64,000 nucleotides of DNA from an uncultured Candidatus Saccharibacteria bacterium (GTDB taxonomy: Bacteria > Patescibacteriota > Saccharimonadia > Saccharimonadales > 2-12-FULL-41-12). Where the stretch lies: positions 22,164 through 86,163 of the forward strand of contig CAZYMH010000003.1 in NCBI GenBank assembly GCA_964648105.1, in the 5' to 3' direction. This document shows, piece by piece, positions 12,682 to 31,917 of this stretch (its first letter is position 1; each line of letters begins with the position of its first letter). Below the pieces are notes generated by a model. That model made no database searches. It saw only the letters and a list, made by a program, of their open reading frames with translations, and was not told the DNA's origin. The translations under genes and the position numbers were made by a program.

Positions 12682-12771
12682 GGAGAGGTGCAAGAGTGGT
12701 TGAATTGGAACGCCTGGAACGCGTTTGTGGCGGCAACGTCACCGAGGGTTCGAATCCCTCTCTCTCCGCCA
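12682..12771 (+). tRNA. tRNA-Ser (anticodon GGA)
   Basis: cloverleaf read by hand: acceptor GGAGAGG/TCTCTCC, anticodon stem AACGC/GCGTT with loop CTGGAAC, long variable arm, T-loop TTCGAAT, encoded CCA. Confidence 0.85.
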
Positions 12772-20742: not shown

Positions 20743-20830
20743 TGGTACCGTGGGCCGGACTTGAACCGGCACGAGCGTAATGCTCACAAGATTTTGAGTC
20801 TAGCGTGTCTACCAATTCCACCACCACGGC
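20743..20830 (-). tRNA. tRNA-Leu (anticodon CAA)
   Basis: reverse complement reads GCCGTGGTGGTGGAATTGGTAGACACGCTAGACTCAAAATCTTG...GGTTCAAGTCCGGCCCACGGTACCA: class II tRNA with long variable arm, loop CTCAAAA, encoded CCA. Confidence 0.8.
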
Positions 20831-29321: not shown

Positions 29322-29732
29322 ATGGAAGAAAACGTATCTAATCAATCACACAAAAGTAATCTAGGTCCAAATCAAAAAAGTATTTTGTGTATTGAAGATG
29401 AGTTATTTATCGGCGATTTATATCGGCATGCTTTCGAGAAAGCTGGCTATAAGTTTGATCTAGTTGTTAGCGGCGATAATGGCCTCGACATGGCCAAGCA
29501 AAATAACTACGATTTTATCTTGTTAGATATTGTTATACCTGGCATGTTGGGGGTAGAAATCCTGCATGAACTTCGTAAATTGCCAGATCTTAGTAGCAAA
29601 GTTATTATCACTACTAATCTAGAACAAGACCAAGAAACTCGCAGTATGGTCGAAAAAGAAGCCGATGCTTACCTTATCAAAGCCGAAATTACACCTAATC
29701 AGCTCGTAGAATTTATTGATAATTTCAATTAA
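29322..29732 (+). CDS. single-domain response regulator (receiver only)
   Basis: start moved to ATG 29322 (MEENVSN), which avoids overlapping the kinase gene; ILCIEDE ... ILLDIVIPGMLG ... receiver signature; no output domain. Confidence 0.7.
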   Translation: MEENVSNQSHKSNLGPNQKSILCIEDELFIGDLYRHAFEKAGYKFDLVVSGDNGLDMAKQNNYDFILLDIVIPGMLGVEILHELRKLPDLSSKVIITTNLEQDQETRSMVEKEADAYLIKAEITPNQLVEFIDNFN

Positions 29733-30082
29733 TTTTTGTCTAAATAGTGGATTAGTTGGCCAACTGTCGAGACACCTTCGTGATCAAAGAAATTCTGAAT
29801 ATGAGACGTGTCGCTTAACTCTGCTTTGGCTTCCTCGACGCTATAATCACTTCTTAGTGCCATAAAAATTCTTAGTGAGGCATAACTGGCAGTTGGACTA
29901 GGTTTTTCACCGTTAGTACTCAATGCATCAGATATACTTAAGCCCAAATTTAAGTGATTTACGCTTGATCCAGTCCGTTCAGTATAGCCAGCTGGATCTT
30001 GAACAAAATTACCATATCGGACATGTTTTTCACGACCATCAGAATATCTAATATAGACATTTAATTTTTCTCTCGAACTCAT
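29729..30082 (-). CDS. hypothetical protein
   Basis: 117-aa ORF, no motif recognised. Confidence 0.3.
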   Translation of the reverse strand: MSSREKLNVYIRYSDGREKHVRYGNFVQDPAGYTERTGSSVNHLNLGLSISDALSTNGEKPSPTASYASLRIFMALRSDYSVEEAKAELSDTSHIQNFFDHEGVSTVGQLIHYLDKN

Positions 30083-30318
30083 CGAACAAATATTATAGAA
30101 GAACTCCTGTCAAATAGCAAGTAAATTGTACGACAAAATTCGCTCCCGCTGGGATTCATGGTTTCGTCGAGGGAATCGACTCACGTTTCACGCGAGCCCG
30201 TCGCCACATCTTTGCAAAACCAGTTTGCAAGAGTGTACTCCCTTGCGAACTGCCACTGGCAGTTCTCACCCGATAGCAAGCCTTGCAATCGGTGTTCGAT
30301 TCAGTAAAATAAACCAAG

Positions 30319-30346
30319 AAAAGAGTCCCAAAAATGGGACTCTTTT
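30319..30346 (-). terminator. intrinsic terminator downstream of tRNA-Glu
   Basis: 11-bp stem AAAAGAGTCCC/GGGACTCTTTT with 6-nt loop, followed on the minus strand by a U-rich tract. Confidence 0.5.
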
Positions 30347-30348
30347 CT

Positions 30349-30423
30349 TGGTGATCTCACGGGGAATCGAACCCCGATTGCAAGGATGAGAACCTTGTGT
30401 CCTAACCGTTAGACGATGAGACC
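30349..30423 (-). tRNA. tRNA-Glu (anticodon CTC)
   Basis: reverse complement reads GGTCTCATCGTCTAACGGTTAGGACACAAGGTTCTCATCCTTGCAATCGGGGTTCGATTCCCCGTGAGATCACCA; anticodon loop TTCTCAT; encoded CCA. Confidence 0.85.
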
Positions 30424-30663: not shown

Positions 30664-31917
30664 ATGGGATTGTTTGGTAAAAAGGCCGAAAATGACAGTC
30701 AAAACAGCCAAAGTCAGTTTAACGCTCTTATAAAAAGCAAGGAGTTGCAAGCTGATATTTTGATTCAATCGATCGGTGATGGGGTAGTTGCTACAGATGC
30801 CATGGGTCGAATTATTACGATTAATCGGGCAGCGGCCGAATTAACAGGCTGGACAGCCGAAGAAGCTACCAATATCGACTCAAGATTAGTGGTTAAATTA
30901 ATTGTTGATGAGAAAAATATGCAACTGATCTCAGAACCTGACCATCCCTTTACTCAGGTGTTAACTTCGGGCAAAACCTTCAATCAAACGCTAATTTTAG
31001 TTAACAGAAATAACCAGCATATTTATATATCAATGATGATTTCGCCGATTATCAATCCAAAAGCCAACAATTTGATCGGTCTAATTGCAATTATTCGAAA
31101 TGTCAATAAAGAAAGACGCGAAGAGCAGAGAAGTGCTGATTTTATAAGTACGGCTAGTCATGAAATGCGAACGCCAGTTGCCGCCATCGAAGGCTACTTA
31201 GCCTTAGCCTTAAACGATAAAGTAAGCAAAATTGATGCCAAGGCCCGCGAATACCTCGATAAAGCTCATGCCAGCACCCAACATCTTGGCCAACTTTTTC
31301 AAGATTTGCTAACTTCGGCCAAAGCCGAGGATGGCCGCCTAACCAGCCACCCTGTTGTAACAGAGATGTGTGCTTTCACCGAAAGCCTAACGGAAGATAT
31401 GCGATTTTCGGCCGAAAAAAAGGGTCTGGCTATCGAATATATTCAGGGTACTCACGGAGTAAGTAGTTCGGTTGATGCTTCGGGGAGTGGAACAATTGGC
31501 AAAACTATCGCCCCACTGATGTATAGTCTCGTCGACCCTGATCGTATGCGAGAAGTGATAACTAATGTCTTCGATAATGCCGTCAAATACACCGAGTCTG
31601 GCAAAATTACTATCTCCATAGCTGCTAACAATGATGTCGTCCAAATTTCGATAGCTGATACTGGTCCTGGCATACCCAAAGAAGATTTGCCTCATTTATT
31701 CCAAAAATTCTACCGAGTAGATAATTCGGCCACTCGGTCAATCGGCGGAACAGGTTTAGGGTTGTTTATTTGTGCAGCTATTGTCAAGTTATATAATGGC
31801 ACAATTTGGGCTGATAGTAAGGTCGGCGAGGGCAGTGTATTTTACATAAACTTACCTAGACTTACCTCGCAACAAGCGGCTCATTTGCAAGCCCAAGAGA
31901 AGCCTCAAATTGTCTAG
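30664..31917 (+). CDS. cytoplasmic PAS-domain sensor histidine kinase
   Basis: PAS-like region (IGDGVVATDAMGRIITINRAAAELTGW), H-box ISTASHEMRTPVAAIEGY, HATPase_c G-boxes. Confidence 0.8.
   Translation: MGLFGKKAENDSQNSQSQFNALIKSKELQADILIQSIGDGVVATDAMGRIITINRAAAELTGWTAEEATNIDSRLVVKLIVDEKNMQLISEPDHPFTQVLTSGKTFNQTLILVNRNNQHIYISMMISPIINPKANNLIGLIAIIRNVNKERREEQRSADFISTASHEMRTPVAAIEGYLALALNDKVSKIDAKAREYLDKAHASTQHLGQLFQDLLTSAKAEDGRLTSHPVVTEMCAFTESLTEDMRFSAEKKGLAIEYIQGTHGVSSSVDASGSGTIGKTIAPLMYSLVDPDRMREVITNVFDNAVKYTESGKITISIAANNDVVQISIADTGPGIPKEDLPHLFQKFYRVDNSATRSIGGTGLGLFICAAIVKLYNGTIWADSKVGEGSVFYINLPRLTSQQAAHLQAQEKPQIV

Follow-up and report, generated by a model that had tools for sequence, protein, structure and literature searches.

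Why does a tRNA gene of an uncultured Saccharibacteria bacterium lie next to an inverted copy of its own 3' half and a cluster of GC-rich hairpins? The arrangement occurs in a stretch of 64,000 nucleotides (hereafter the window), and a sequence-only reading had taken it for a decayed tRNA-Glu half lying head to head with the live gene. Our analysis demonstrates instead that positions 30159-30302 of the minus strand constitute one "3'-type" unit of an uncatalogued family. At its center is M, an uncatalogued structured element of ~90 nt that many ultra-small bacteria (CPR/Saccharibacteria) carry within partial copies of tRNAs, next to the intact tRNA genes.

Organization of the tRNA-Glu locus

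The intact gene is tRNA-Glu(CTC) at 30349-30423 on the minus strand, with its CCA encoded, as recognized by ARAGORN and by the Rfam tRNA model in Infernal (59.8 bits). A scan of the window places the first terminator, t, at 30313-30352 (minus strand), where a perfect 18-bp hairpin is followed by a T run; the ACCA of tRNA-Glu forms part of its stem, and the hairpin can be used in both directions. The unit begins ~46 nt past tRNA-Glu in the same orientation. Like other 3'-type units, it is placed between the terminator of the tRNA and a second terminator, and is composed, in order, of an antisense T-arm, a sense T-stem stub, the core M (87-90 nt, three helices) and a copy of the tRNA 3' end. In the window its neighbors at the protein level are a histidine kinase and a response regulator, together with an ORFan.

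The antisense segment a' (30281-30302, minus strand, GAATCGAACACCGATTGCAAGG) is a copy of tRNA-Glu positions 39-60 with 21 of 22 nucleotides identical. Together with 30364-30385 it makes up the inverted repeat noticed earlier, which is real: its 22 nt are 95% complementary and homologous to the tRNA 3' half, with a BLAST E-value of 2e-4 against the whole window. The proposed tRNA-Glu half on the plus strand, however, is absent, as neither ARAGORN nor Infernal detects a tRNA or pseudo-tRNA there, and no tRNA-like match is returned for that strand by ARAGORN or the Rfam tRNA model even at E ≤ 10. The inverted copy is rather the 5' arm of a hairpin in the composite unit on the minus strand, and its partner is a sense copy of tRNA positions 40-52. 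This partner, segment a (30269-30280, minus strand, CTTGCTATCGGG), covers tRNA-Glu 40-51/52, stops at the 5' strand of the T-stem and is short of one G in its G run. Pairing is possible between the 3' part of a' and segment a, and between the 5' part of a' and segment b on the far side, so that a' bridges both sides of M; the same arrangement recurs in most 3'-type units.

M itself occupies 30179-30268 on the minus strand as a 90-nt core of three hairpins. Our covariance model R1 matches it over its full length (76.4 bits, E = 3.8e-17) and finds a single copy in the 64-kb window, on the minus strand only. Its layout is UGAG, helix P1, YGCAAGG, helix P2, CGGG and helix P3 with a GAA-type loop, and UGAGAAC is its near-invariant 5' end. 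The 7-mer GTTCTCA, which had been likened to the anticodon loop, is indeed present, but the likeness is coincidental because the 7-mer is the reverse complement of UGAGAAC, a 5' end that is also found beside unrelated tRNAs. Among the stems proposed from the sequence, GAACTGCC/GGCAGTTC is real and conserved, corresponding to P1, whereas GTTTGCAAG/CTTGCGAAC is unsupported, its bases being located in the covarying helices P1 and P2. The stem GTCGA-GGGAA-TCGAC does exist in the window, but it is specific to this copy and arises from the end of the element and the decayed copy of the tRNA 3' end. The segment is GC-rich as described (0.49-0.52 over 30100-30299 versus 0.38 for the window), and it folds far better than shuffled sequences, with z = -6.3 on the plus strand, the terminator included, and -5.9 on the minus strand.

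Downstream of M, segment b-c (30159-30179, minus strand, TCGATTCCCTCGACGAAACCA) is a remnant of the tRNA 3' end, whose first ~10 nt match the tRNA from T55 onward. Its acceptor-strand part is decayed in the window (12 of 23 positions in register), while relatives carry exact 22-nt copies. The position that the second terminator takes in relatives is occupied by a weak hairpin with a T run, CCCAGCGGG..ATTTTG (30133-30153, minus strand), which was read from the sequence and was not called by the consensus terminator scan. M is intact in spite of this decayed flank. Since the tRNA 3' repeat is decayed and the second terminator weak, the window copy is probably old and immobile.

Two further features of the minus strand are located after the unit. 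A promoter-like site (TTGCTA, 17 nt, TATAAT; 30092-30120) lies outside the element and precedes a 117-aa ORFan (29729-30082), which belongs to no family, has itself as its sole homologue, and could be either a cargo gene or spurious. We also considered M as a riboswitch or 5'-UTR of this ORFan and rejected it: the promoter-like site intervenes, the ORF is an ORFan, and the element stands elsewhere beside unrelated genes. The six-frame ORF drawn across the region (87 aa, 30126-30389) overlaps the tRNA and the terminator. Neither it nor the two shorter ORFs over the region match any Pfam family, and it is spurious, as had been suspected, because homologous copies differ in length by non-multiples of three and covary in the manner of an RNA.

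Conservation and novelty of M

M occurs on at least 120 metagenome contigs retrieved with one strict pattern, and at this same locus in nine of 80 HK-syntenic Saccharibacteria genomes, a set that was not chosen for M. Paired positions are complementary in 96.4% of the alignment cells, compared to 74.9% in shuffles and ~40% in slid controls. Compensatory cells number 619 against 172 in shuffles, none of 500 shuffles attains the observed values, and 27 of the 34 pairs show compensatory changes; because the metagenome set was retrieved by a P1 pattern, these figures carry an ascertainment bias for part of P1. Conservation of one G.U pair, in 82 of 88 sequences, implies that the fold is strand-specific. 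These data show that M folds, that it is specific to the tRNA-sense strand and that it is under purifying selection. The hairpins at the window locus are accordingly not decay products; they are the three covarying helices of M, a conserved element of 87-90 nt that accompanies dozens of different tRNAs. With its invariant junction nucleotides and 27 covarying pairs, the 87-nt core is a candidate ribozyme, protein-binding scaffold or folded recombination site.

A comparison of related genomes leads to the same view. In most of them tRNA-Glu is clean, but the extra sequence of the window is neither unique nor random decay, since nine of 80 genomes share the element here and 12 of 56 share a downstream repeat of the tRNA 3' end. 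The suggestion of recombination aimed at the tRNA gene was sound insofar as the locus bears its marks.

M matches no Rfam family at gathering or relaxed thresholds in the window and 14 related loci, a search that covered ribozymes, riboswitches, sRNAs, RtT, and group I and II introns and returned only tRNAs. A weak DUF3800-VI match, which scored 13.7 bits where the threshold is 35, was put down to similarity between hairpins, and identities with tmRNA, SRP, RNase P, 6S or Y-RNA, considered through their conserved motifs, were not backed by Rfam. Nor is M present in IMG/VR viral contigs or in phage and plasmid collections, where our queries gave tRNA-Glu matches or nothing. The literature that we searched holds no description of M, which is weak evidence as most subscription journals lay outside its scope. 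The family is nevertheless very common in CPR/Saccharibacteria, whose genomes are tiny and poorly understood.

Genomic context of M

M is closely tied to tRNA genes: of 151 copies, 104 have a tRNA within 900 nt on their own strand and only two are near one on the opposite strand. Nearly all tRNA specificities are flanked by it, and M most often starts ~78 nt past the end of the tRNA. The host is nearly always an incomplete tRNA copy with the intact cognate tRNA next to it, and no case was found of M interrupting a complete tRNA. Its left flank is highly constrained, with G at -1 in 90, G at -2 in 76 and a purine at -3 in 89 of 91 copies. Junctions fall in the T-loop, in the D-arm or D-loop, and at anticodon-loop positions 37/38. 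Those in the D-loop and anticodon loop are confined to 5'-type units, as would suit a module providing whichever replacement part is shorter.

The flanks follow a regular pattern. Most 3'-type units, and 17 of the 22 5'-type units with T-loop junctions, have an antisense segment across the junction. The 3' flank of M is usually an exact 20-23-nt copy of the neighboring tRNA end, and a terminator-like hairpin follows 45 of the 57 units that end in ..CCA. Promoter-like sites are found upstream of 5'-type units. The joints are imprecise, with 1-3 target nucleotides missing.

M as a possible insertion module

We consider it about an even chance (probability ~0.5) that M is a non-coding structured insertion or recombination module specialized on tRNA loops, of which the window holds an old copy. 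Several observations are of the kind expected from insertion. M is nested inside other copies of M, after ..CGGG| and with GU lost; it is found in an mRNA leader, accompanied by a duplication of 9 nt, and in the loop of an unknown large RNA. Tandem arrays exist, as do arrays in which tRNA 3' repeats delimit cargo genes (loci L192, L174 and L182). M marks tRNA genes as sites of rearrangement without an integrase, including small cassette arrays with cargo. Sequence identity is 0.675 and 0.665 within the two unit types and 0.672 between them, indicating that 5'-type and 3'-type units draw on one intermixed pool. Private P2 variants are common to the copies on one contig (L174, L198), and the distribution of M is patchy among close relatives.

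As a working mechanism, M would proliferate by joining to steps that end in G, as a rule GG|GU, within the exposed loops of tRNA genes and of a few other structured-RNA genes; it would use the T-loop (53/55), the D-loop or D-arm, and the anticodon loop (37/38). Since tRNA genes are essential, we propose that each surviving copy would be one housed in a truncated tRNA that has an intact tRNA next to it. Such a truncated copy would retain either the promoter and the 5' part (5'-type) or the 3' end and the terminator (3'-type), and the antisense segment would clamp the two exon stubs. In a single-stranded form, the duplex of the uninterrupted target could then be rebuilt with M extruded at the joint, a folded geometry that would resemble integron attC and CTX-phage attP(+). 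The folded species may be ssDNA or RNA, and a candidate enzyme would be supplied in trans. Against this, within 5 kb of M we found no recurrent recombinase, transposase or reverse transcriptase upon clustering 615 neighboring proteins, the largest family being a housekeeping gene at eight of ~115 loci.

Other points also count against the module. The imprecise joint fits no chemistry of the IS200/IS605, integron or intron type, and the module does not account for the origin of the antisense segment. Our searches yielded no pair of empty and occupied alleles and no circular or excised form of M; the only other contigs of the same species, from the Logan assembly, break inside the region. The conserved G.U pair, GAA loops and invariant junction purines of M are RNA-like and would fit a functional RNA as well.

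M units, like integron attC and CTX-phage attP(+) sites, have a strand-specific hairpin of target-like sequence and its inverted copy, and further parallels are the unpaired region at the crossover point, a recombinase that for M would likewise be encoded elsewhere rather than in each cassette, and same-orientation cassette arrays parted by a structured site (L174, L192, L182). Integron crossover takes place at G|TT, and the inferred joint of M likewise follows a G. The extruded part in M, however, is a conserved 87-nt core of three helices instead of a few extrahelical bases. The R'/R'' boxes of attC (GTTRRRY / RYYYAAC) are not matched by the T-loops, which read GTTCRAN, no IntI- or Xer-type gene is linked to M within 5 kb, and most M units have no cargo; the ssDNA form of M is hypothetical.

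MITEs, IS200/IS605-derived PATEs and REP/RAYT elements are also small and non-coding with terminal hairpins, insert in a specific orientation at a short target motif, have to be mobilized in trans and form nested copies. Unlike in these elements, the terminal hairpins P1 and P3 of M are unlike each other, and M is of low copy number (one per 64-kb window) and almost confined to tRNA loops (104 of 151 copies near a same-strand tRNA). Its joints lose 1-3 target nucleotides rather than being precise, and it is accompanied by a partial duplication of the target gene and an antisense bridge.

More speculatively, M might be a protein-free mobile core that attacks exposed GG-ending loops at the RNA level, or a guide-plus-scaffold for a trans-acting recombinase in CPR; we regard this as possible, if doubtful. 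In the first version, M would be a small ribozyme-like or protein-scaffold RNA targeting the tRNA elbow and anticodon loop of abundant structured RNAs, would become fixed in DNA beside the target gene, and would use the antisense segment as an exon-bridging guide. In the second, M as RNA or ssDNA would serve an undiscovered recombinase that builds cassette arrays at tRNA genes. An analogy with IS110 bridge RNA or TnpB/IscB omega-RNA was set aside, as both segments, sense and antisense, correspond to identical positions of the target and would pair together; moreover, no such protein is nearby, and both 5'-flank and 3'-flank versions exist.

Alternative explanations

The strongest alternative is that M units are putative small structured RNA genes of tRNA operons, a CPR counterpart of the tRNA-linked repeats (TLRs) of E. 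coli, namely RtT RNA of the tyrT operon and rrA/rrB/rrF of the rrn operons. TLRs are short non-coding sequences directly downstream of a tRNA or rRNA gene, arranged in 1-5 tandem units, often between two terminators, and each ends in 18-19 nt that exactly repeat the 3' end of the gene upstream; their function is largely unknown, and some are produced by terminator read-through and processed (PMC8144298). The 3'-type M units match them in position, the ~22-nt 3'-end repeat, tandem arrays and dual terminators, and the exact tRNA-end copy as the 3' flank is the defining feature of a TLR (PMC8144298). This TLR-type identity amounts to 20-23 of 23 nucleotides in most relatives and to 12 of 23 in the window, where only the first ~10 nt match. 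The dual-terminator layout, seen in 45 of the 57 units that end in ..CCA, the RNA-type conservation of M (conserved G.U, GAA loops, strong covariation) and the lack of a linked mobility gene would also suit RNA genes, and 5'-type units might be transcribed from a tRNA-type promoter, given the promoter-like sites upstream of them.

In contrast, 3'-type units follow strong terminators and lack their own promoter. The nesting of M in M, its presence in an mRNA leader and in the loop of another RNA, the single pool for both unit types and the patchy occurrence among relatives are insertion-like rather than typical of a gene family, and M persists in the window although the tRNA-like 3' end, the presumed processing signal, is decayed. 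TLRs differ from M units in several other respects: they share no sequence or structural similarity with M, the Rfam RtT model (RF00391) gives no match, and M units possess a three-helix core exactly at the T-loop joint, an antisense T-arm segment and mirror-image 5'-type forms upstream of tRNAs. M further occurs in D-loop and anticodon-loop contexts, self-nested, and in CPR bacteria. We therefore regard an RNA-gene identity as unlikely, while noting that an RNA function and mobility can be compatible, and that M provides a second, independent example for the old puzzle of what tRNA-linked repeats are. At locus L198, the two M copies flanking one tRNA are quite diverged while the tRNA flanks stay exact; this counts against the insertion module, as it could mean that M is selected for an RNA function and was not newly inserted.

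A scar of integration seems improbable. Here, a kb-sized island or prophage would have entered the tRNA-Glu 3' end by a tyrosine integrase and later been deleted between attL and attR, the remains being a duplicated tRNA end and attP-arm DNA. The tRNA 3'-end direct repeats downstream of the gene in 12 of 56 relatives are consistent with such a history, as is the interval between tRNA-Glu and the response regulator, a variable hot spot that holds umuDC, an R-M system or a large serine recombinase depending on the genome; at L182, 4.2 kb of cargo lies between the tRNA and the M unit. Tyrosine-integrase and tycheposon-like islands likewise regenerate an intact tRNA, displace a 3' fragment as a direct repeat, and accrete in tandem at tRNA hot spots with variable cargo adjoining the tRNA. 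In the window, however, the direct repeat is present though degenerate, whereas an integrase or kb-sized element is absent; across ~115 loci no integrase adjoins M and no recombinase recurs within 5 kb of it. The units are ~200 nt, and dozens of different tRNAs show this same architecture, in which M is placed precisely at the T-loop joint, a pattern that independent deletions would not leave. Tyrosine integrases do not make 5'-type units that duplicate the 5' part of a tRNA, and the joint of M is marked by a conserved, covarying folded core that is missing from the viral, phage and plasmid sets.

It is very improbable that M is an intron, or that the pieces are split-tRNA halves, such that removal or joining at the RNA level would yield a functional tRNA. 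The likeness to bacterial group I introns and to archaeal BHB introns and split tRNAs consists in sense-only insertion in conserved loops, including the canonical 37/38 and other exposed sites, in a covarying conserved structure, and in a guide-like antisense segment complementary to both exon ends, as in guides or archaeal split-tRNA leaders. Nonetheless, removal of M in silico never gives a complete tRNA among 111 copies; five give marginal ARAGORN calls, all of them stubs beside an intact gene or boundary artefacts. The exon joints are imprecise and short of 1-3 nt, M never lies within a complete gene, the intact cognate tRNA adjoins, and M, at 87 nt, is much too small for a group I core and matches no Rfam group I, group II or other intron model.

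The view that the locus is a decayed plus-strand tRNA-Glu half whose hairpins arose by chance, a decay product that is unique and has no function, or else a genuine ORF of 87 aa, is refuted: the 22-nt identity to the tRNA, the 7-mer GTTCTCA and an ORF that can be drawn across the region speak for it, but the plus strand lacks a tRNA-like match, the covariance model matches the minus strand only, many genomes (syntenic ones included) hold covarying homologues of M, the ORFs have no family, and copies of the element vary in length out of frame. M also explains the recurrent annotation trouble near tRNA genes, namely spurious ORFs, pseudo-tRNA fragments and assembly breaks at inverted repeats.

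Anatomy of the tRNA-Glu locus

The segment downstream of the tRNA-Glu(CTC) gene (30349-30423, minus strand) contains a 22-nt inverted repeat, 30281-30302 / 30364-30385, which the sequence-only reading had pointed out and which is 95% complementary, with E = 2e-4 against the whole window. The same reading was right that the segment is GC-rich and folds strongly: the 200 nt adjoining the repeat have 49-52% GC versus 38% in the genome, and both strands fold far more stably than shuffles (z = -6.3 and -5.9). We retrieved 80 syntenic loci via the adjacent histidine kinase; nearly all bear a Saccharibacteria or Saccharimonadales label, which places the window in a Saccharibacteria (TM7) genome. Comparison with these relatives demonstrates that the region should be read on the tRNA (minus) strand, not on the plus strand as first done. 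The window shares with three of the retrieved loci (L004, L010 and L072) the layout of a unit following tRNA-Glu: a terminator, an antisense/sense hairpin of the T-arm 5' side, and a conserved core of ~87 nt. In these three, the 22 nt that end the tRNA (T55 to CCA) are repeated exactly after the core, usually with a second terminator behind them.

In the window, the terminator is a perfect 18-bp hairpin (30313-30352) into whose stem the ACCA end of the tRNA is folded. Next on the minus strand come a', an antisense copy of tRNA-Glu 39-60 (30302-30281, 21/22 identical); a, a sense copy of 40-52 (30280-30269); the core, which we call M (30268-30179); and b-c, a copy of the tRNA 3' end (30179-30159) whose match is limited to the first ~10 nt (12/23 in register). 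The window copy looks old: M, a, a' and the initial 10 nt of b have survived, whereas the acceptor-strand repeat has decayed and the second terminator is weak. tRNA-Glu is the sole unit-bearing tRNA of the window; Ser-GGA (12682-12771, plus strand) and Leu-CAA (20743-20830, minus strand) show no direct or inverted fragments of at least 11 nt within 700 nt.

Several short features are thereby reassigned. The heptamer GTTCTCA, once taken for an anticodon-loop mimic, is the reverse complement of the near-invariant M 5' end, UGAGAAC. The stem GAACTGCC/GGCAGTTC is real but corresponds to helix P1 of M, a conserved element of the family, and the GTCGA-GGGAA-TCGAC hairpin also exists but is specific to the window, being built from the end of M and the decayed 3' copy.

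The unit is followed by a 117-aa ORF (29729-30082, minus strand) with its own promoter-like site and no family match, whose sole homologue among 5.8 billion clustered proteins is itself; it could be a lineage-specific cargo gene or non-coding. In independent Logan assemblies of the same organism (L201, L202), the contigs stop at window positions 30205 and 30352, inside the M/inverted-repeat region; no other conspecific contigs turned up, and no pair of empty and occupied alleles was found. M units are likely under-assembled in short-read MAGs.

Fold and extent of the M family

A strict P1 motif with the following GCAAG, used as the retrieval pattern, matches at least 120 metagenome contigs and none of the IMG/VR viral contigs; nothing similar to M was found in plasmid and phage collections. 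In the alignment of 88 distinct copies (84-91 nt), the consensus runs from P1 (8 bp with an NGU loop, closed by U1-A and G2-C pairs) through the junction AG to a long two-segment P2, and through the junction GG to a 7-bp P3 with a GAA-type loop. Covariation is strong. Paired cells amount to 96.4%; column shuffles give 74.9%, and sliding the partners by 1-3 columns gives 27-45%. Of the 34 pairs, 27 show compensatory double changes, with 619 compensatory cells versus 172 expected and none of 500 shuffles matching the observed values; part of P1 is fixed by the retrieval pattern and its covariation is biased there, a bias that does not touch P2, P3 or the outer pairs of P1. One G.U pair in P3 is retained in 82/88 sequences, indicating that the fold belongs to the tRNA-sense strand. 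M is a folded element that is conserved and strand-specific.

The covariance model derived from the alignment finds a single copy in the window, 30179-30268 on the minus strand (76.4 bits, E = 4e-17), and recovers M in 9 of the 80 syntenic loci, which had not been chosen for M, so that the extra sequence is not unique to the window; these nine and the window are the ten Saccharibacteria genomes to which, among all M contigs, the taxon assignment applies. Rfam yielded no family matching M at any locus tested, and in the window region recognised the tRNA alone, even at E <= 10. M accordingly represents a large structured family that is not catalogued in Rfam 15 and of which full-text search, with most subscription journals outside its coverage, found no description.

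Position of M relative to tRNA genes

The positional census comprises 151 copies in 130 loci among the matches listed. A same-strand tRNA lies within 900 nt of M in 104 cases, 52 with M downstream and 52 with M upstream, versus only 2 with a nearby opposite-strand tRNA, and the adjoining tRNAs cover nearly every amino-acid specificity. The base preceding M is G in 90/91 copies, and the one before it in 76/91. In 3'-type units, which lie downstream of a tRNA and keep its 3' end, M is always at the T-loop; the sense stub stops at G53 or one G before, and the right flank restarts at T55 or C56. The upstream, 5'-type units consist of the tRNA's own 5' part, M, a short continuation, a promoter and the intact tRNA, with M at the T-loop (22), D-arm/loop (21) or anticodon 37/38 (4). 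T-loop 54/55 and D-loop 18/19 are in contact at the tRNA elbow, and tRNA introns classically lie at 37/38.

The flank of the unit that faces the intact gene carries the uninterrupted target in antisense, reaching across the joint. This bridge is present in most 3'-type units and in 17/22 of the T-loop 5'-type units; when single-stranded, it can pair with both stubs, leaving M extruded. As a rule, the 3' flank repeats 20-23 nt of the neighbouring tRNA end exactly, and a terminator-like hairpin follows 45 of the 57 units with such a flank. M is embedded at G-ending loop positions of truncated tRNA copies beside intact cognate tRNAs, with an antisense bridge and no linked protein gene.

Two minor observations concern these flanks. 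The tRNA-Gly(GCC) 5'-type units of L126, L128, L149, L153 and L178 have diverged M copies and share a 4-nt insertion (TTGCCA-GGCC-AAGG) in the anticodon arm retained by the post-M stub, reflecting either an inherited unit or a footprint of the mechanism. In L146 (930-1000, minus strand), a 22-nt repeat of the tRNA-Gln 3' end lies 12 nt past the intact gene with M absent, and could be a minimal or M-deleted unit.

Arrays and signs of insertion and turnover

M is nested within M (e.g. L099, L129, L161, L199), always after the junction ..CGGG and with the following GU lost, and in L007 and L159 one stub carries two copies, in its D-loop and T-loop. In L049 (3840-4010), M occupies the 5' leader of the gene orthologous to the window's histidine kinase (30664-31917), where 9 nt of the Shine-Dalgarno (ribosome-binding) region are duplicated on either side of it (CTAAGGAGG / CTTAGGAGG). 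A further setting is a conserved, structured RNA-like region of ~400 nt, shared by L087 (2750-3150, minus strand), L116 (830-1200) and L118 (1380-1750) in blocks that include ACACCCTTCAACCCACC, GTTAAAGGGGTTAGT.TGTTTTAGAAC, AGTGGAGGGTAACAACT and ATAAGGTGCG and with zero Rfam matches at the gathering threshold; its partial 5' copy upstream carries M inside the first hairpin loop (GGAGGG|GG|TGGGC).

Units also occur in tandem (L002, L007, L161) and in cassette-like arrays (L192:11100-12900, L174:1-1100, L182:1-4500), where they alternate with small cargo ORFs, including a GNAT-like acetyltransferase and a 2'-5' ligase-like protein among others, or follow a 4.2-kb copper-resistance segment. The array modules are bounded by 9-22-nt tRNA 3'-end repeats and a terminator, and none of the three contigs carries an integrase. 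Mean M identity is 0.675 and 0.665 within the two unit types and 0.672 between them, and the nearest neighbour is of the same type for only 25/67 copies; the 5'- and 3'-type copies form one intermixed pool. Copies on the same contig share private P2 variants (L174, L198), and among the window's close relatives tRNA-Glu is accompanied by nothing, by M units or by units with a second core.

Origin of the units

In the reading that we tentatively favor, at a probability of about 0.5, M is a non-coding module of insertion or recombination that is mobilised in trans and directed at the exposed loops of tRNA genes. Both architectures would result if a folded unit (bridge, stub, M, stub) underwent one single strand exchange with a duplex tRNA gene. 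At the 3' edge of M, the exchange would leave the tRNA, terminator, a', a, M and the displaced 3' end; at the 5' edge, the intact tRNA would stand behind a new promoter, preceded by the displaced promoter with the 5' part, then M, b and b'. Such an exchange would also explain why integration recurs to build arrays and why joints at the D-loop and anticodon loop are confined to 5'-type units. The bridge/M geometry parallels integron attC and CTX attP(+) sites, although M units do not carry their consensus boxes.

The main rival, which we consider less probable, takes M units for small RNAs that belong to tRNA operons, the CPR counterpart of the tRNA-linked repeats (TLRs) of E. coli. The RNA-like conservation of M speaks for it, as do the exact tRNA flanks that persist beside diverged M copies (L198). 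The defining mark of TLRs is a stretch of 18-19 nt that repeats the upstream tRNA 3' end exactly; some lie between dual terminators and are produced by read-through, and little is known as yet of what they do (PMC8144298). The M family is akin to TLRs and to small non-autonomous tRNA-gene-targeting elements, yet belongs to none of them because one defining feature of each failed when tested. The module and small-RNA readings are compatible, as a mobile module might have M as its functional RNA.

An intron is unlikely: in-silico excision of M, over every plausible shift of its boundaries, restores no complete tRNA. ARAGORN made five marginal calls in 111 copies, which were stubs beside an intact gene or a boundary artefact, and the joints lack 1-3 target nucleotides. 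A conventional island scar is likewise unlikely, with no recurrent recombinase, transposase or reverse transcriptase among 615 clustered proteins within 5 kb of M, and so is chance decay, given the signs of insertion and turnover. Protein coding was rejected, in agreement with the initial view that the ORF across the region is spurious, as the ORFs have no family match and the indels between copies are out of frame; the reading of the unit as a leader for the gene that follows it was rejected as well, the 117-aa ORF being an ORFan with its own promoter-like site.

A second core and the tRNA-Glu hot spot

The second core can be written ..CAAGG-AGCACGCGCAG-hairpin-CGAGCAUGCG.., and its insertion point follows G57. 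In L058 (3480-3700), L061, L066, L001, L002 and L048, on the tRNA strand downstream of tRNA-Glu, it reads ..CAAGG-AGCACGCGCAG-hairpin-CGAGCAUGCGA-CGCGG-hairpin. It occupies the same socket as M, with an antisense/sense T-arm hairpin ahead of it and the tRNA 3' end behind it, has the CAAGG junction in common with M, and shows compensatory changes by eye. The P1 helix of M (GAAnUGCC/GGCAnUUCG) itself resembles a fossil antisense/sense T-arm hairpin, a likeness suggesting that M derived from a unit of this kind. The interval from tRNA-Glu to the conserved response-regulator gene is a variable hot spot across Saccharibacteria, containing, as judged only from N-terminal motifs of ORF translations, umuDC in L059, L061, L010 and L002, a 555-aa large serine recombinase in L027, or an R-M system, with L004 having a methyltransferase and its neighbours.
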